DNA from: Nitrosopumilaceae archaeon
GTDB taxonomy: Archaea; Thermoproteota; Nitrososphaeria; Nitrososphaerales; Nitrosopumilaceae
DNA: 64,000 nucleotides
Assembly: GCA_965200155.1 (NCBI GenBank)
Contig: CBDATR010000034.1
Location: 160,001 to 224,000, forward strand
Direction: 5' to 3'
Under the pieces are notes generated by a model. That model saw nothing but the letters and a program-made list of their open reading frames with translations. It was not told the DNA's origin and searched no databases. The position numbers and the translations under genes are program-made. Within the stretch, counting starts at the first letter, position 1; each line of letters starts with the position of its first letter. Of the stretch, positions 6,064 through 52,176 are shown piece by piece.

Positions 6064-7024
6064 TCAATAGTACGAAAAGTAAGTCCGCTTAGGATCCGGC
6101 GTACAGTAGCTCAGATTGCACAAGCCAGATGGTAAAGAGAACAACAGAGGAATCAAGACAAAAGAGGCGTTGCCACAACCAAAATAGCTCAAGACCCGAA
6201 ACAAGACACGTACGAAGATTGTGAACCAGAGAACGGGAACGACTCGAGTAAAGATGGGCAGGCCTATGATACCAATCACCGCTACCCAGATACGAATGGT
6301 AACTGAAGCATATCACAAGGATCCCGCCGGAGTAGTACGTATTGCAAAGAGGCTTAGACAGAATTACAATATATCGCGTAGTATATCGCATAATGAAAAA
6401 GAACGGCACGACAGTCTCATCACCTGCAAAGTCAGAGTGGGTACGCTATGAGCGTAAATATTCCAATGCAATGTGGCACTGGCATGTCATGAAAAGATGA
6501 GCGCTTCAGGGGACTGAATCTCATAGATGATGCATCCAGGTGTATAGTCGGAGCGGCACTATTCTAGCATGCAACCTGAGAACGCCGCTCTATTACTGAG
6601 ATTGGCGATAGAACGATTCGGCGCCCCTGCATCTCGGATAACGGCGCGTGTTTCGTAGGACAATAAAAGGGCAAAAAGAACTGGAAACCCACACTATTCT
6701 AGGAAGAACTGCTGGATCAAGACATCATACTAATCAATTCCAGACCATACCACCCGCAGACAAATGGCAAACTGGAGCGCTTCCATGGAATGATTGAGGA
6801 CGAGGGGACTCTTATTTAAGAGTCCAACGAGATATGGCATTATGACAGTCTCCGGGATTATATAGACTACTATAATGAGAGAAGATTGCACTTCTCACTG
6901 GATATAGATAACGGCGAGACACCACTCCAGGAATAAAAAGGCGACCCAGACAATTAGGGCAAATGATGCAAAATGGATGGAGCGAGATACCAATGACTAG
7001 CGGACCGACTTTTCGTACATTACA
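6064..7024 (+). mobile_element. IS481-like non-autonomous copy B
   Basis: Ends TCAATAGTACGAAAAGT...ACTTTTCGTACATTACA; frameshifted integrase-core transposase. Confidence 0.9.
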
Positions 7025-46204: not shown

Positions 46205-46319
46205 GGAGGCGGCGGTCACGCTGGCACTGCTTGCATATGGGCTTGCCCTTGTACGCGGGGTTCCCGTTCCTGATTCTGCCGGTACCGGGTTTGTCCTTGC
46301 ATATGACACAATTCGCCAT
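46188..46319 (-). CDS. 43-aa zinc-finger microprotein
   Basis: MANCVICK...ICKQCQRDRR; ATG overlaps the leuB stop (TAATG). Confidence 0.7.
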   Translation of the reverse strand: MANCVICKDKPGTGRIRNGNPAYKGKPICKQCQRDRRLLMETR

Positions 46320-47371
46320 TATCCATCCGCCCACTGCCTGGTATTTCTACCTGTCCTTATACGTTCTATTATTTTGTGGGTGAATTCCTCAGTGCTTAGC
46401 TTGCCGCCAATATCTCTTGTGCAAAGACCGCTACCCACTACATGACAAATGACCGATTCCAGTAATGAGGCTGCACTATTGCAATTCTCGTCATTATTAG
46501 TAGTTGCAAGCCACTGCAACATCATTACGATAGATAGCAGAAAGGAGCACGGATTTGCCCACCCTTTGCCAGCTATGTCAAAGGCGGCACCGTGTACGGG
46601 CTCGAACAGGGCAAAGTCATCGCCTATGTTGGCGGCCGGTGCCATGCCCAAACCCCCTGTCACCTGTGATGATTCATCCGATAGTATGTCACCAAACATG
46701 TTGGTAGTGACTATTACGTCAAACTGCTCCGGCTGCCGTATGAGATTCATGGCACATGCATCCACATACATGCTCTCAAATGTTATATCGGGATACTTTT
46801 GCGCCACCTTGCTACATGTATCATAAAAGAGGCCGTCGGTGACACGCATAACATTGGACTTGTGTACGCAGGTGACCTTCCTTGCGCTTCGTTGCATTGC
46901 CATCTTAAAGGCCTTTGTTGCTATGCGCCTGGACGCCTCATAAGTTATAATACGCAGGGCCGCGGCACCACCCTCCACCTCGAATTCCTTGCCCGTGTAT
47001 AGATCCTCGGTATTCTCGCGAACTATGACCATGTCAATGTCATTTCGCAGGCTGGCCACTCCCGGGTATGATCGCGCGGGCCGTATGTTGGCGTACAGGT
47101 CTAGCATGCGACGGAGGGCCACTATCACGTCCGCCGCAGACTCTCCAACCGGCGCCTTGAGACAGGCATCCGATTCCTTTATGATTTTAATGGTATCCTC
47201 GGGCAGCGCCTTGCCAGTGTCCTGCAGGGCGCCATCGCCAGCCTGAACCGGATGTACATTGAATACTATACCGGTGGTGGTCGAGAGCGCATCTAGTGCG
47301 GCAATCCCGGACTCTGAGAGTTCCGGCCCTATCCCGTCACCTGTGATTAGTGATATGTTGTACTCTCTCAT
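46319..47371 (-). CDS. leuB: Isopropylmalate/isocitrate dehydrogenase family, LeuB
   Basis: GDGIGPE, RENTEDLY, HKSNV, NMFGDILSD, EPVHG. Confidence 0.88.
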   Translation of the reverse strand: MREYNISLITGDGIGPELSESGIAALDALSTTTGIVFNVHPVQAGDGALQDTGKALPEDTIKIIKESDACLKAPVGESAADVIVALRRMLDLYANIRPARSYPGVASLRNDIDMVIVRENTEDLYTGKEFEVEGGAAALRIITYEASRRIATKAFKMAMQRSARKVTCVHKSNVMRVTDGLFYDTCSKVAQKYPDITFESMYVDACAMNLIRQPEQFDVIVTTNMFGDILSDESSQVTGGLGMAPAANIGDDFALFEPVHGAAFDIAGKGWANPCSFLLSIVMMLQWLATTNNDENCNSAASLLESVICHVVGSGLCTRDIGGKLSTEEFTHKIIERIRTGRNTRQWADG

Positions 47372-48882
47372 TAGTCCACCTCTGGACCGCGCATATTTTT
47401 CAGCATAAGCCGGTTGGCGCCATCCACCACTGCCTGCACGCTGGTAGTGACAATGTCCTTGCCCACCGACTTTGAGGATATGGCATTTCCCTGTGGATCC
47501 TCCACTCTTACGGTGACCTCACACAAGGCGGTGGAGCCCCCGGATATGGATGCCAGCTGATAGTCCTTTATTCTCATCTCAGAGGCGGCGCCGGTTATCT
47601 TTTGTATTGCATTAAGGGAAGCATCCACCGGTCCCACGCCATAGTCGGTCTCAGAGTAGTCCTTGCCGTCAATGTTCAGTTTCACAAAGGCATAGGGCAT
47701 GGTACCTATTCCCGTGGAGACAGAGAATCCTACAAGTCGTACAAGCCTACCAATGTGGCTGTCCCCCATTATGTCATTAGATATTGCCAATAATTCCACC
47801 TCCGTTACAAGCTTGCCCTGATCCCCCATCTTCTTTACCTGTGATAGTATGTCCCTGGACTGCTGCTCTGTCGGTTTAATTCCATACTCCTCCAGTATGG
47901 CGTTGGTTCCGTGAAGTCCTGCATGCTTGCCCACCCGAAGCCACCTCTTTCTGCCTACAAGTTCCGGCCCTATGGGCTCGTACGTCAGGGGGTTACTCAG
48001 TATGCCATGTGTATGAATGCCCGACTCGTGCCCGAATGCATTGTCTCCCACTATGGCCTTGTTGGGCTGCACCTGCATGCCCGCGACCTGTGATATGAAG
48101 CGGGATGTCTCGTATATTTTCTTGGTCTCTATGCCTGTCTCATATGACTCGTCGTGCTGCAGGCACTTTAGCGCCATTACAAGCTCCTCCAGCGAGGCGT
48201 TCCCGGCCCTCTCCCCTATGCCGTTTATGGTTACATGGGCGCAGGATGCCCCTGCCTGTATCCCCGACAATGAATTGGCTACCGCCAGGCCAAAATCATT
48301 ATGGCAGTGAACCGATACGGGCAGGCCCGATGCTTCTATGGCATCGGCAGTTATTTTGGCGATATACTGTGGCGTGGAGTAGCCAACAGTATCCGGTATG
48401 TCTATGCGGTCCGCTCCCGCGGCAGCTACAGCAGAGAATACCTTGCTTAGATACTCCCTGTCCGTGCGGGTTGCATCCTCCGCGGAGAACTCTACCTGCA
48501 GTCCCCGGGATTTCGCATACTCTACGGCCTCTACAGCCTTGGTTAGTGCCGTATCACGGTCCATCTTTAGCTTGTATTCCAGGTGCATATCTGAGGTTGC
48601 AATGAAGGCATGCGCGTAATTCAAGCCCGCGTCCACTATCGCGTCAATGTCCCGGCTATTGGCGCGGGCCAATCCGCACACATCACAGGAGAGCCCGGCC
48701 TCGGATATGCGTCGTACTGCGTCCATCTCACCCTGTGATATGACTGGAAATCCCGCCTCTATGACATCAACACCCAGCCGGTCCAGCCTCTTGGCTATGT
48801 CCAGCTTCTGGGGCGGCGAGAGGGATATTCCAGGTGTCTGTTCCCCGTCCCTGAGTGTGGTATCGAATATACGTATCCTCAT
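47371..48882 (-). CDS. leuA: 2-isopropylmalate (or citramalate) synthase
   Basis: DTTLRDGEQ, HCHND, GIGERAGN, HESGIH; C-terminal regulatory domain GVGPVDA. Confidence 0.88.
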   Translation of the reverse strand: MRIRIFDTTLRDGEQTPGISLSPPQKLDIAKRLDRLGVDVIEAGFPVISQGEMDAVRRISEAGLSCDVCGLARANSRDIDAIVDAGLNYAHAFIATSDMHLEYKLKMDRDTALTKAVEAVEYAKSRGLQVEFSAEDATRTDREYLSKVFSAVAAAGADRIDIPDTVGYSTPQYIAKITADAIEASGLPVSVHCHNDFGLAVANSLSGIQAGASCAHVTINGIGERAGNASLEELVMALKCLQHDESYETGIETKKIYETSRFISQVAGMQVQPNKAIVGDNAFGHESGIHTHGILSNPLTYEPIGPELVGRKRWLRVGKHAGLHGTNAILEEYGIKPTEQQSRDILSQVKKMGDQGKLVTEVELLAISNDIMGDSHIGRLVRLVGFSVSTGIGTMPYAFVKLNIDGKDYSETDYGVGPVDASLNAIQKITGAASEMRIKDYQLASISGGSTALCEVTVRVEDPQGNAISSKSVGKDIVTTSVQAVVDGANRLMLKNMRGPEVD

Positions 48883-49373
48883 GCCCCACTCCTTTGGAGA
48901 GCGACTATTCCGGTTGTGGCCATCTCTATTATGCCAAACTTTTTCGCCAACTCCTCAAAGGCGCGTATCTGAGATGGCGTAGCAGTAAGCTCCGCCATTA
49001 TGGAGTCCTGCTTGGTGTCATGAGCCTTGGCTCCATATGCCTTTATCAACTGGTTTATCTCCATGCTCTCCTGGGCGTTGGATATTCGTATCTTGAATAT
49101 GGCCAGTTCCCGGTATACGGTCTTGTGCTGATCAAGGCGCCTTACCTCGACGGTGTCTATCATCTTTTCTAGCTGCTTGCCTATCTGGGTAATCTGTTTT
49201 ATGTCCCCATATGCGGTGATGGTCATTCTTGATAGTTCCGGGTTCTCTGTTACTCCGACAGCGATGGTGTCTATGTTGAAGTTGCGGGCCCTGAACATGT
49301 GAGTTACCTTAAAGAGTATACCCGGCCTGTTTTCCACTAGAATAGAAAATATTGCCCATTCCATACGCATCAC
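48879..49373 (-). CDS. ilvH: Acetolactate synthase small subunit
   Basis: ACT domain VENRPGIL...RNFNI. Confidence 0.93.
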   Translation of the reverse strand: MMRMEWAIFSILVENRPGILFKVTHMFRARNFNIDTIAVGVTENPELSRMTITAYGDIKQITQIGKQLEKMIDTVEVRRLDQHKTVYRELAIFKIRISNAQESMEINQLIKAYGAKAHDTKQDSIMAELTATPSQIRAFEELAKKFGIIEMATTGIVALQRSGA

Positions 49374-51058
49374 GAAGGCAGTATCATGTCCTTGAGTGGT
49401 GTTCCCGGAGCTACAAAGGGTAGCACATCCTCTTCCGGATCTATTGGAATATCTATTACAGTGGCCACATCGCTATTCAGGGCTGCGCGGATGGCCTTGT
49501 CCAGCTCCTCCATGGACTGGGCCCGTATCCCCTGTGCCCCATAGGACTCGGCCAGTTTCACATAGTCGGGGCAGCGACCCTGATCCACGCCTACCATTCG
49601 CCTGCCAAAGAATGTTCTCTGCCACTGGGCCACCATACCCAGGCTGTAATTATTTATCAGAAACACGATAACGGGTATGTCTTCTAGTACGGAGGTGGCA
49701 AGAGAGTTCTCCGTCATGTTAAAGCTGCCATCACCGGCTATGTCCACTACGTGTACGTTTGGTCGGGCCACCTTGGCCCCTATGGCTGCAGGAAAGCCCC
49801 ATCCCATGGTACCAAGACCGGTAGAGCTAAAGAATGTGCCCGGCGATATCACATCAAAGAATAGTGACGCCCACATCTGGTGCTGTCCCACCTCTGTGGT
49901 CACTACGGAGTCTGCGGGAAGCAGCTCCCGTAACTTTCGCAGTATCTTTGCCGCTCCCAGCTCTCCGGGGTGTATCTTGAGGTTCTCCTTCCAGTAGGCG
50001 CGCATATCCCTTGCGTGTCTCAGCCACTCTCCCTTGTCATCGGGATTGATCTTTGTACTCTGTAGTAACCTGAGCATGACCCGCAGGGATGCCTTCAGGT
50101 CGCCTACCACCGCGACCCTGGTGGTCTGGTTCTTTCCTATCTCTGCCGGGTCCACGTCCATGTGAATAATGGTGCGCCTGTTCTCAAAGTCCGCAAAGGT
50201 GCCCACTGATCTATCCGAAAAGCGTGTCCCTATTGCCAGTACGCAGTCTGATTCTGACATTATCTTGTTGGCTTCCGCGTGGCCGTGCATGCCTATGGGA
50301 CCCATGGACAGGGGGTGATTCTCCGGAAATGCACCCTTGCCCTTAAACGTGGTAACTACCGGTAGCGAGAGAAGCTCTGCCAGGGCCTGCAGCTCCGCAA
50401 AGGCCGATGATATTATGGCGCCTCCACCGGCCAGTATGACCGGCTTGTTTGATCTCACCAAGGCCTGAATGGCCCGCTCCACGTTGTCAATGTCCGGATC
50501 CATCCATGGGTTATAGCCCCTGATCTTTACCTGATCCGTCATTGTGATATCTGCCTCGCCGGTCTGTACATCCTTGGGTATGTCTATAAGAACGGGACCT
50601 GGCCGCCCGGTGGATGCTATGTAGAACCCCTTTTGCACCGACACTGGCACCTCTTCTACAGTGCGGGGCTGGAACGCATACTTGACTACCGGATTTGCCA
50701 TACCTATTATGTCGCTCTCCTGAAACGCATCCTTCCCTATCATGTTTACCGGTACCTGGCCAGTCACCGCTACCATGGGTGCCGAGTCTGCTTGCGCCGT
50801 GGCTATTCCGGTAAGTATGTTAGTGGCACCGGGCCCTGATGTGGCAAAGCACACTCCTGGTCTCCTGCTTACCCTGCCATACCCGTCGGCCATGTGTGAC
50901 GCGGATTGCTCATGGCGCACCAGAATGTGCCGTATGTCACACCTGTTGAATTCATCATACATGGGAAGGTTGGCTCCCCCGGGAAGGCCAAATACCTCCT
51001 TGACCCCCTCCCGTTCTAGGGCGGTCATAAGCGACTTGGCACCTGTCATATTGCTCAT
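49370..51058 (-). CDS. ilvB: Acetolactate synthase large subunit
   Basis: FGLPGG, RHEQ, TSGPGATN, GDGSF TPP motif; GGAGG upstream of 51058. Confidence 0.95.
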   Translation of the reverse strand: MSNMTGAKSLMTALEREGVKEVFGLPGGANLPMYDEFNRCDIRHILVRHEQSASHMADGYGRVSRRPGVCFATSGPGATNILTGIATAQADSAPMVAVTGQVPVNMIGKDAFQESDIIGMANPVVKYAFQPRTVEEVPVSVQKGFYIASTGRPGPVLIDIPKDVQTGEADITMTDQVKIRGYNPWMDPDIDNVERAIQALVRSNKPVILAGGGAIISSAFAELQALAELLSLPVVTTFKGKGAFPENHPLSMGPIGMHGHAEANKIMSESDCVLAIGTRFSDRSVGTFADFENRRTIIHMDVDPAEIGKNQTTRVAVVGDLKASLRVMLRLLQSTKINPDDKGEWLRHARDMRAYWKENLKIHPGELGAAKILRKLRELLPADSVVTTEVGQHQMWASLFFDVISPGTFFSSTGLGTMGWGFPAAIGAKVARPNVHVVDIAGDGSFNMTENSLATSVLEDIPVIVFLINNYSLGMVAQWQRTFFGRRMVGVDQGRCPDYVKLAESYGAQGIRAQSMEELDKAIRAALNSDVATVIDIPIDPEEDVLPFVAPGTPLKDMILPS

Positions 51059-51088
51059 TATATCATAATCCTCCATAACTACTCAGTG

Positions 51089-51154
51089 GCGTGATTACTC
51101 ATCACGCTAAGGCAACACCAGCAACAAGGGGGTTGCAGGGACCATCATACTCAT
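51089..51154 (-). promoter_or_regulatory. Putative leader peptide (51107-51154, MSMMVPATPLLLVLP) plus hairpin (51089-51107)
   Basis: TTG TTG CTG GTG TTG codon run; 7-bp stem GCGTGAT/ATCACGC; TATA-like TTTATTAA about 51172-51179. Confidence 0.6.
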
Positions 51155-51197
51155 TGAACAATTAGTTGCTTTAATAAATTTTGGCATGTTGGGACTT

Positions 51198-51319
51198 GTA
51201 ACCGTTTAGGTCGCGTAAATCTAGACGATAAATCCGTGGGCATATGATGATAGAAAAGGCAAGAATGGATATGTTCGCGGTGTATTGAGTGGTTGTCTAG
51301 GAGTGAACTAAACGGTTAC
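51198..51319. mobile_element. MITE-B (IS66 family B ends)
   Basis: GTAACCGTTTAG...CTAAACGGTTAC; 9-bp TSD TTGGGACTT. Confidence 0.9.
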
Positions 51320-51396
51320 TTGGGACTTTGGTACAAACCGGATTTGTTGCTCTTTTACGCTGGGGTTATGGTGAATCCCAATCTGATATGTATGCG

Positions 51397-52176
51397 TTAG
51401 TGGCATGTACGGCAGTGATGGGACGAATCCATGTCATATTCATATACCATGTATGAATCCCCGGTACTTACTGCACGATACGACCAATTCTTGGACCACG
51501 GGGCAAGCATGAACTCTTTCTGCAAATCCGGGCGCAGGCGATTATACACGTCCATGCCCAGCAGTATTTGATCCGGTTTTGCGCGGGCCTCTATCTTTGC
51601 GGCCATATTCATGGAGCGGCCCATCATGTCCAGGTGCCTCCTCTCGCCCTTTCCATACTGTATTACTATATTCAGGCCATAATCTATTCCTATCTTGACT
51701 TGTAGCTCCGGAAAGTCATATTGGGTTAGTACCGGGTTTATGCCCCACTTTATCACCGGTAGCATGGTCTTGGCGCATGTCACTGCATCGTCCACCGACT
51801 GCCGTACACTGCTTCTCTTGCTTACAAAGTATCCTATAACTGCATCTCCCATGAATTTGAGTACCAGTCCGTGATTTTTTACTACAATAATGCCCATCTC
51901 TTGTACGAAGGTTGACATTATTGGGATTATGTTTGCGGGGGCCTGGTCCAGCGCCAATTGCGTTGATCCCACTAAATCTATATACAAAATGGCGGAGTTA
52001 AACCTTCTTGATACGTGCCTCCCCAGAAAATCCTCTGACTCCTCTATTATGCCTGAATAGTTGTATCCCCTTTTGAGGGCTGCATAAACACGAGTCTGTA
52101 TGTCCTGTATTGTGGTACCTGCATATATCTCAGTATCAAGAGTGATCCCTTTGGTATCAGGAGTCATCTCGATCAT
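51397..52176 (-). CDS. Class III adenylate/guanylate cyclase
   Basis: LYIDLVGST, KFMGDAV, IGID.G, NMAAKIE. Confidence 0.88.
   Translation of the reverse strand: MIEMTPDTKGITLDTEIYAGTTIQDIQTRVYAALKRGYNYSGIIEESEDFLGRHVSRRFNSAILYIDLVGSTQLALDQAPANIIPIMSTFVQEMGIIVVKNHGLVLKFMGDAVIGYFVSKRSSVRQSVDDAVTCAKTMLPVIKWGINPVLTQYDFPELQVKIGIDYGLNIVIQYGKGERRHLDMMGRSMNMAAKIEARAKPDQILLGMDVYNRLRPDLQKEFMLAPWSKNWSYRAVSTGDSYMVYEYDMDSSHHCRTCH

Follow-up and report, generated by a model that had tools for sequence, protein, structure and literature searches.

The ilvB-ilvH-leuA-leuB operon on the minus strand of a 64,000-nt stretch of DNA from a Nitrosopumilaceae archaeon (GCA_965200155.1, contig CBDATR010000034.1, positions 160,001 to 224,000; the whole stretch is referred to here as the window) makes, according to its Pfam assignments, valine, leucine, and isoleucine precursors, and it is preceded by a short upstream open reading frame (uORF) whose final codons specify mainly leucine and valine and whose stop codon overlaps a compact hairpin. 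We propose, with a probability of about 70%, that this frame encodes a cis-acting leader peptide through which the translating ribosome senses charged Leu-, Val-, or Ile-tRNA, whatever the readout that follows. The proposal draws on the anatomy of the leader, its conservation among relatives, the exclusively synonymous change of its Leu/Val codons, the covariation of the hairpin, and the spacing of the promoter.

All coordinates are positions in the window, and the leader features were read on the minus strand between 50900 and 51400, upstream of ilvB:

51171-51178, minus strand: TATA-like promoter box TTTATTAA, predicted from sequence and spacing.
51107-51148, minus strand: leader uORF in its likeliest form, MMVPATPLLLVLP followed by TAG, 13 codons; putative and probably leaderless.
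51154-51152 (ATG) to 51109-51107 (TAG), minus strand: longer version of the uORF, MSMMVPATPLLLVLP, as given in the first-pass annotation of this DNA; from the sequence.
51145 (in-frame ATG), minus strand: shorter version of the uORF, 12 codons; from the sequence.
51111-51143, minus strand: helix P1, inside the uORF, with the 5' arm at 51143-51132 (codons 2-6) and the 3' arm at 51125-51111 (Leu/Val codons); from the RNAalifold consensus.
51089-51107, minus strand: helix P2, a perfect 7-bp hairpin made of GCGTGAT (51107-51101), the loop GAGTA (51100-51096), and ATCACGC (51095-51089); from sequence and fold.
51070-51085, minus strand: ilvB ribosome-binding region with the remnant TGAG (51085-51082), ATG 51076, and GGAGG (51074-51070); predicted from the sequence.

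Read from 51154, the codons of the uORF are ATG AGT ATG ATG GTC CCT GCA ACC CCC TTG TTG CTG GTG TTG CCT TAG, which gives the tail LLLVLP and places isoleucine, leucine, or valine (I/L/V) at five of the final eight residues. The Leu/Val codons used are not rare (TTG 0.17, CTG 0.32, and GTG 0.31 of their families). The core of P1 is the inner stem GCAAC (51136-51132)/GTTGC (51125-51121), and in the window's own sequence this helix carries two mismatches. The first base of P2 is the G of the uORF stop codon TAG, and the last Leu codon and the Val codon lie 8 and 11 nt, respectively, from that base. The ribosome-binding site adjoins P2 and is unpaired, with 3 nt between the end of P2 and the remnant TGAG and 12 nt between the end of P2 and ATG 51076; no T-run follows P2 in the window. 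All elements listed in the first-pass annotation, that is, the TATA-like box, the LLLVLP uORF, the 7-bp hairpin at the stop codon, the GCAAC/GTTGC stem, and GGAGG, are thus present on the minus strand. Folding of the 121-nt leader gives z = -1.77, only mildly better than shuffled sequences, of which 7 in 200 do equally well. A long-range pairing between the 5' end of the mRNA and the ilvB start region, seen in the single-sequence fold, was discarded, being absent from the consensus fold.

The evidence that carries the proposal is comparative. Upstream regions of ilvB were taken from 90 genomes of the class Nitrososphaeria, representing 50 genera and 25 families, and were searched for frames of 8-45 codons that begin with ATG, end 20-80 nt before ilvB, and hold I/L/V at no fewer than five of their last eight residues; the reverse complements of the same 90 regions and 1142 upstream regions of the window's own genome served as controls. 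Such a uORF is present at 68 of the 90 ilvB loci, compared with 5 of the 90 reverse complements and 16 of the 1142 regions of the same genome (1.4%). At the stricter threshold of at least six of eight residues, 52/90 loci remain, versus 0/90 reverse complements and 1/1142 regions of the same genome, and 29 of the 50 genera have some locus at this level; at least seven of eight residues are I/L/V at 25/90 loci. For a single genome the chance level is modest, short ORFs with five Ile/Leu/Val residues among eight at some position being common, and within one genome the feature is barely beyond chance; its conservation in relatives puts it far beyond chance. Among named Nitrososphaerota records, 8 of 11 carry the uORF, including Nitrosarchaeum (tail MSTTTNYALGVLSLVYLVL), Nitrosopumilus, Nitrosotenuis (tail ...LLPVELVL), and Ca. 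Nitrosotalea devanaterra (tail MTKVDSTSISSILLQVELVL). Four loci (L124, L158, L161, and L163) have no ATG, but an equivalent tail stands there behind GTG or TTG. The uORF was found in none of seven Methanosarcinales-type ilvB loci, and not in most of families f23-f25.

Within the genus, ten sequences (the window and nine relatives) were aligned from the promoter to ilvB, eight of which were used for uORF length and for RNAalifold. All ten carry L-L-V-L, unchanged, at codons -5 to -2; the codons themselves change only synonymously, with Val written as GTG, GTC, GTT, or GTA and two of the Leu codons as TTG or CTG. The uORF measures 42 or 45 nt in 8/8 sequences, so that the frame is kept, and taken as a whole it shows no third-position bias (variable columns 7, 5, and 6 of 13). 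This pattern, with L-L-V-L retained and no overall third-position bias, fits a leader that acts in cis and is not selected for its peptide as such, and it argues against a peptide that acts in trans. At the nucleotide level, conservation is strong at CCGCAACC, GTTGCTGGT, and the arms of P2.

The RNAalifold consensus contains two helices only, P1 and P2. P1 comprises 12 pairs, one of them compensatory (GC to AU in three sequences), and its 5-bp core, 98% paired and nearly invariant, says little either way. In P2, two pairs keep pairing through double changes (UA to CG and AU to UA), which occur in three of the ten sequences, the most distant members of the genus. Paired cells amount to 97.1% for P2 and 97.5% for both helices together, versus 16-56% after a shift of the 3' partner by 1-3 columns. 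The P2 covariation probably reflects a single evolutionary event and is supportive, not decisive. The comparison that the first-pass annotation had proposed as a check, for a conserved Leu/Val-rich uORF before ilvB across Nitrososphaerota and for a covarying hairpin, has therefore turned out in favor of its interpretation on both counts. No mutually exclusive antiterminator/terminator pairing appears in the consensus fold of the eight genus sequences, and alternatives in single sequences are not significant, with z of about -0.3 to -0.5. In the relatives, ATTTGAGGTG follows P2 by 1-3 nt and an ATG lies 4-6 nt beyond it; the TGAG of the window aligns with the relatives' GAGGTG.

Promoter spacing bears on where the uORF begins. 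Genome-wide, 32 of 78 occurrences of the TATA-like motif fall in a peak 32-27 nt before ATG starts, and none falls at -24. Such a peak is characteristic of leaderless mRNAs, and the available text on GeneMarkS-2 places 11 of 11 Thaumarchaeota in its leaderless group (PMC6028130). Counted from the start of the box, the distance is 24 nt to the ATG at 51154, 30 nt to that at 51148, and 33 nt to that at 51145. In the nine genus relatives, TTTATTAA, TTTAATAA, or TTATAAAA is found 29-32 nt before a conserved ATGATG or ATGAAG, and no TATA-like box lies between the uORF and ilvB in the genus. Across the class, 36 of the 68 uORF-bearing loci have a TATA-like motif 34-26 nt before an in-frame uORF ATG, the distribution peaking at -38 to -29, and the uORF lengths fitted to the TATA-like motif span 12-26 codons. 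Because of the TATA spacing in the genome and the genus, the in-frame ATG at 51148 or 51145 is a likelier leaderless start than that at 51154, and the predicted uORF MMVPATPLLLVLP is most likely translated from the 5' end of the RNA. The leaderless reading of the first-pass annotation is thus backed by promoter spacing, with its start moved from 51154 to 51148 or 51145; the same annotation had taken a transcription start downstream of 51154 as fatal to the idea, which is too strict because an in-frame ATG follows.

The 68 uORF-bearing loci, which represent 33 genera, also served for a survey of the region behind the stop codon, in which the counts of Shine-Dalgarno (SD)-like motifs are descriptive and without a control. 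A helix begins within 6 nt of the stop codon in 68/68 folds of the post-stop segment, which by itself is weak evidence, since the segment starts there by construction; its z falls below -2 at 20/68 loci, where about 2 would be expected. The stop-adjacent hairpins are unrelated in sequence between families, and GC-rich ones occur at L025, L030, L120, L122, L152, L154, L161, and L164. In minimum-energy folds, an SD-like motif is paired in the 3' arm at 23/68 loci (12/33 genera), and at 21/68 loci such a motif starts within 15 nt after the helix, while a run of four T stands near the helix end at only 5/68 loci (3/33 genera). These class-wide counts give, as the common order, I/L/V codons, stop codon, hairpin, and ribosome-binding site, and not a hairpin with a U-tract; the caution of the first-pass annotation that intrinsic termination is unlikely is borne out by them and by the sequence that follows P2 in the window.

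In AT-rich Nitrosopumilus-like genera, the helix is weak and made of AU pairs, and its 3' arm consists of a conserved TTAAAATTATGG motif with an ATG in it. A motif AACACATTAAAATTATGG(A/G)G, about 32 nt before ilvB, is strongly conserved in Nitrosopumilus-like genera (L011, L013-L016, L132-L135, and others), and the window retains only TTATGGAG of it (51078-51070, TTATGGAGG). This motif could be the 3' arm of an AU hairpin or a second TATA box for a leaderless ilvB. The ATG in it may be where ilvB truly starts, or the first codon of a mini-ORF of 6-8 codons that ends at or near the ilvB start.

How a leader of this kind might act can be outlined, although here we infer from the sequence that the uORF is translated, that the ribosome stalls, and at which level and in which direction the effect falls. 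Tentatively, and at somewhat less than an even chance, we favor translational attenuation, in which a stalled ribosome opens the stop-adjacent P2. A promoter about 30 nt upstream would yield a leaderless or near-leaderless ilvB-ilvH-leuA-leuB mRNA that opens with a frame of 12-13 codons, the final ones specifying Leu-Leu-Leu-Val-Leu-Pro. The role of the uORF in cis would be to position a ribosome on the Leu/Val codons before P2 and upstream of the ilvB ribosome-binding site. When charged Leu/Val/Ile-tRNA is plentiful, the ribosome would finish and leave, P2 (and P1) would refold, and initiation at ilvB would stay low. When charged tRNA is scarce, the ribosome would dwell on the last codons and its leading edge would keep the 5' arm of P2 open, so that the region before the ilvB start would become accessible and more enzyme for branched-chain synthesis would be made. 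Given the size of the ribosome footprint, stalling on the last three or four codons should bring the ribosome into the 5' arm of P2.

Several observations weigh against this interpretation, either against the sensor itself or against its translational readout. The uORF was not found in the family genera g2, g5, g8, g13, and g37 (two GC-rich genomes and two small ones among them) and was found in 0/3 genomes of genus g30, which belongs to family f15; that family is patchy, with 9/30 even when a start codon is not required. The missing third-position bias over the whole uORF, noted above, belongs here as well. In a scan of about 150 nt, the strongest local hairpin starts within 6 nt of the stop codon at only 20/68 loci, where about 6 would be expected, a moderate enrichment, and the AT-rich genera have weak helices (z near 0). 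Sequestration is not evident in the window or its genus, where the SD-like motif stands 3-7 nt after P2 and not within it. For three members of the genus, the fold of lowest energy instead has the SD paired with the P2 3' arm (z about -0.3 to -0.5, not significant); if real, such a fold would give the opposite sign. Finally, P2 is opened also by a ribosome that has reached the stop codon, which leaves dwell time as the only basis of the model.

The sensor could be the same and the readout different. Premature transcription termination would have P2, with P1 perhaps as a pause hairpin, halt the polymerase, either intrinsically or through aCPSF1/FttA, and a stalled ribosome would block P2 or the access of the factor and so allow read-through. 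The order of regulatory codons, stop codon, and GC-rich hairpin is that of bacterial attenuators, and terminator-like elements do follow the uORF in places: a GC hairpin with six T at L161, five T at L016, CTCTTTT at L125, and four T in the Nitrosotalea type. Archaeal RNA polymerase can stop at a bacterial-like hairpin with oligo-T, and the hairpin can enhance this, according to the available part of a recent review (PMC13675443, citing Santangelo and Reeve 2006); the position of the SD outside P2 in the window's genus also makes a purely translational role less obvious. Yet no T-run follows P2 in the window or in 9/9 genus relatives (TTT at most), the four-T run is confined to the few loci counted above, the consensus fold offers no mutually exclusive antiterminator pairing, and one hairpin without an alternative structure discriminates poorly, P2 being covered by a ribosome at the stop codon too. 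We regard termination as less likely than the translational readout, but as a serious competitor to it. A constitutive role is less probable still. The frame would then merely deliver ribosomes, its translation unfolding the leader and passing ribosomes to ilvB by termination-reinitiation, and the hydrophobic tail would be a by-product of the helices. Such a frame would agree with the short distance of 30-48 nt from the uORF stop codon to ilvB, with the pairing of codons 2-6 and the Leu/Val codons in P1, whose core is nearly invariant in nucleotides, and with the uniform variation across codon positions. The pairing of one genus cannot, however, explain an I/L/V tail that persists over 25 families with unrelated sequences and helices; moreover, the enriched amino acids are exactly the products of the operon, the genus changes its Leu/Val codons only synonymously, and such tails are rare before other genes (16/1142).

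If the frame were incidental, the region could be an untranslated RNA or DNA element, such as an Lrp-type operator or an RNA hairpin that binds a protein. Control by Lrp/FFRP-type proteins is common among archaeal amino-acid operons, and the strong nucleotide conservation of CCGCAACC, GTTGCTGGT, and the P2 arms in the genus would agree with an element of this sort, but an in-frame ATG, a stop codon that directly closes the hydrophobic run, and, in register with both, a periodicity of T at the middle base are kept at 68/90 loci versus 5/90 on the reverse strand, length changes preserve the frame in 8/8 sequences, and the TATA spacing fits the uORF ATG, all of which makes this explanation quite improbable. 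Very improbable, in our judgment, is a small hydrophobic peptide that acts in trans, for example on acetolactate synthase or in the membrane. Its gene would always stand beside ilvB, as the uORF does, and some bacterial leader peptides have trans functions, peTrpL being the case described in the available text of PMC7298713; only the I/L/V run is kept, however, while the remainder, the length (12-26 codons), and the last residue vary, six to eight hydrophobic residues are too few to span a membrane, and no overall signature of purifying selection is present. Least credible is a chance ORF or a hairpin region that is in fact a C/D-box small RNA (sRNA). Comparable ORFs do precede 1.4% of genes in one genome, but the conservation statistics exclude chance. 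An Rfam cmscan of 50500-52000 with E up to 10 returned four weak matches of small nucleolar RNA (snoRNA) type only and no leader or riboswitch family; at 51053-51109 on the minus strand, sR9 scores 20.6 bits (E 0.33) and snoPyro_CD 18.4 bits (E 0.73), far under their gathering scores of 36 and 45 bits. The window does have GTGATGA, 12 nt, and CTGA, but GTGATGA is not kept in genus relatives (GTGATAG, GTGATCG, GCGCGTT) and the terminal D box is absent; owing to the sub-threshold scores and the unconserved box, the C/D-box reading was rejected.

Ribosome-mediated attenuation is a textbook bacterial mechanism. The enterobacterial attenuators of ivbL-ilvBN, ilvL-ilvGMEDA, and leuL-leuABCD rely on a bacterial polymerase, on a U-tract, and on antiterminator and terminator helices that exclude each other. 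With these leaders the archaeal one shares a short uORF rich in codons for the operon's own products and helices that follow, one of which involves the regulatory codons. It differs in having two consensus helices without alternative pairing, no U-tract in the window and in most lineages, an archaeal TATA-type promoter, a predicted leaderless start, and regulatory codons that abut the stop codon. Work by Morbach et al. in 2000 is said to have found that the Corynebacterium glutamicum leader peptide is formed without a ribosome-binding site. In the available text on the Corynebacterium ilvBNC leader (ilvB-II motif) and the bacterial ilvB-OMG and ilvB motifs, a uORF rich in codons for branched-chain amino acids (BCAA) precedes ilvB and is followed by a strong stem (PMC10272879). 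The likeness to these leaders extends from the conserved BCAA-rich uORF and stem to a peptide that varies in length and sequence outside the BCAA codons and to a start seemingly without a ribosome-binding site; the Corynebacterium type is nevertheless bacterial, and its stem is described there as an intrinsic terminator (PMC10272879). Archaea have 0 mentions in the same available text. Insofar as Rfam release 15 includes these bacterial motifs, they gave no match in the cmscan with E up to 10.

In mycobacteria, leaderless poly-Cys short ORFs (the "Cys ribulon") carry stalled ribosomes that block a structure sequestering the ribosome-binding site, as set out in the available part of a preprint that also names translational attenuation of the ermCL/cat type (bioRxiv 10.1101/834739). 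Common to that system and the present one are a leaderless short ORF as the first cistron (predicted here), a tract of codons for the product, and no need of a terminator. The two belong to different domains of life, use different promoter and initiation machinery, and concern different amino acids; here, in addition, the SD stands beside the hairpin and only one operon is involved. By analogy, the class-wide layout would be matched more closely by the mycobacterial Cys type than by the enterobacterial terminator/antiterminator design, and among the systems compared it is the closest match.

Full-text literature searches returned bacterial ilv attenuators and no archaeal leader peptide for amino-acid operons, and the word "attenuation" is absent from the available text of a 2026 cross-domain review of termination (PMC13675443). 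What would be new here is a leader peptide of bacterial type in archaea, apparently leaderless, with one stop-adjacent hairpin and usually no terminator. We lean slightly toward a broader view in which amino-acid sensing by leader peptides would be an old and widespread archaeal device, kept before ilvB across Nitrososphaeria, including Nitrosopumilaceae, in a minimal leaderless form with one hairpin, and in which, with no intrinsic terminators, the stalled ribosome would remodel the RNA before the next start. If the proposal is true, Archaea would have their first known case of ribosome-mediated attenuation, and archaea with a eukaryote-like transcription machinery would be gauging a metabolite by means of the translating ribosome. 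The element would then account for the tuning of branched-chain amino-acid synthesis in ammonia-oxidizing archaea, which have few recognizable regulators and no genetic system, and would provide a very small, conserved test object of about 100 nt for the interplay of transcription, translation, and RNA folding in archaea. The Nitrosopumilaceae ammonia oxidizers are globally abundant, and the analysis flags genes of 12-26 codons that annotation pipelines overlook.

Within its genome, the leader is single-copy. No comparable I/L/V uORF was found before ilvC, ilvD, or the three aconitase-family genes, so that one operon only has such a leader and no regulon is seen. Short ORFs dominated by any single amino acid were sought in 1532 upstream regions, and candidates rich in Trp, His, Cys, Thr, and Met emerged. 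As further leaders matched to the product of their operon these were rejected: none of the nine downstream genes checked belongs to amino-acid biosynthesis, the nine being a DUF354 gene, an ABC transporter, a DUF2024 gene, one with thrombospondin repeats, an ankyrin/RING gene, an IS66 transposase, and three without a family.

Metatranscriptome data from four runs of one study were available as contigs only, from which no start, end, strand, or level can be read. In 4/4 runs, one contig spans ilvB, P2, and most of the uORF, ending at 51139, 51139, 51136, and 51119. These contigs are compatible with a start near 51148 and with a uORF carried on the ilvB RNA, a weak indication, given that contigs cannot show a single transcript and that DNA carry-over is possible. 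The interval 51140-51195 is without a contig in three of the four runs, and in the fourth a second contig abuts the first at 51139/51140.

The remaining observations concern the operon and its surroundings. Its four genes are as follows:

49370-51076, minus strand: ilvB, acetolactate synthase large subunit (Pfam TPP_enzyme_N, _M, and _C, E 1e-42 to 1e-47).
48879-49373, minus strand: ilvH/ilvN, acetolactate synthase small subunit (Pfam ALS_ss_C and ACT_AHAS_ss).
47371-48882, minus strand: leuA, 2-isopropylmalate synthase type (Pfam HMGL-like and LeuA_dimer).
46319-47371, minus strand: leuB, isopropylmalate dehydrogenase type (Pfam Iso_dh, E 2e-97).

The ilvH gene overlaps the ilvB stop codon by 4 nt. 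The encoded IlvB is 73-80% identical to that of named Nitrosopumilaceae, and other family-level relatives fall in the same range. The ilvB start is ambiguous between two ATG codons: that at 51076 fits the conserved TTATGGAG motif and the N-terminal length in relatives, and that at 51058 is where homologue alignments begin (at residues 5-9 of the longer protein). A two-codon frame, ATG ATA TAA (51066-51056, minus strand), with GGAGG 3 nt before it, ends in TAATG and overlaps the alternative start at 51058; this start-stop layout is absent in the genus relatives.

Upstream of the leader lies a gene at 51397-52176 on the minus strand, which encodes a 259-aa protein with an adenylate/guanylate cyclase catalytic domain (Pfam E 1e-14). 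Its contig word depth is above that of the ilvB contig in the RNA libraries, although contig depths cannot rank genes. Contigs from three runs diverge beyond 51196 on its upstream side, where 72-74 letters hang loose, another difference being a step back of 38 nt with 35 extra letters at 51362/51325 in one contig, and G>A at 51340 is present in 4/4 runs; these differences suggest strain variants between the cyclase-domain gene and the ilvB promoter.

Elsewhere in the genome, an I/L/V-rich frame near branched-chain genes, MEQVVLVNVICA, was discarded as a second leader, as it sits inside a repeated element resembling a miniature inverted-repeat transposable element (MITE). This MITE-like element is about 100 nt long, has the terminal inverted repeats GTATGAGTTCAC...GTGAACTCATAC, and is found before several genes, where it creates spurious short ORFs such as MEQVVLVNVICA and MSSRLPESYAQ...; copies outside the window lie on G000:C23 before ilvC (about 6650-6850; L180) and on G000:C34 before an aconitase-family gene (about 100300-100420; L185). 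A 9-codon Cys-rich ORF, MCCYCQSCA, occurs twice, on G000:C10 before 81454-82497 (minus strand) and on G000:C24 before 394787-395515; one copy stands 51 nt ahead of a DUF354-family gene and the other 64 nt ahead of a gene without a Pfam family, and the ORF may be a repeat or a small conserved gene.

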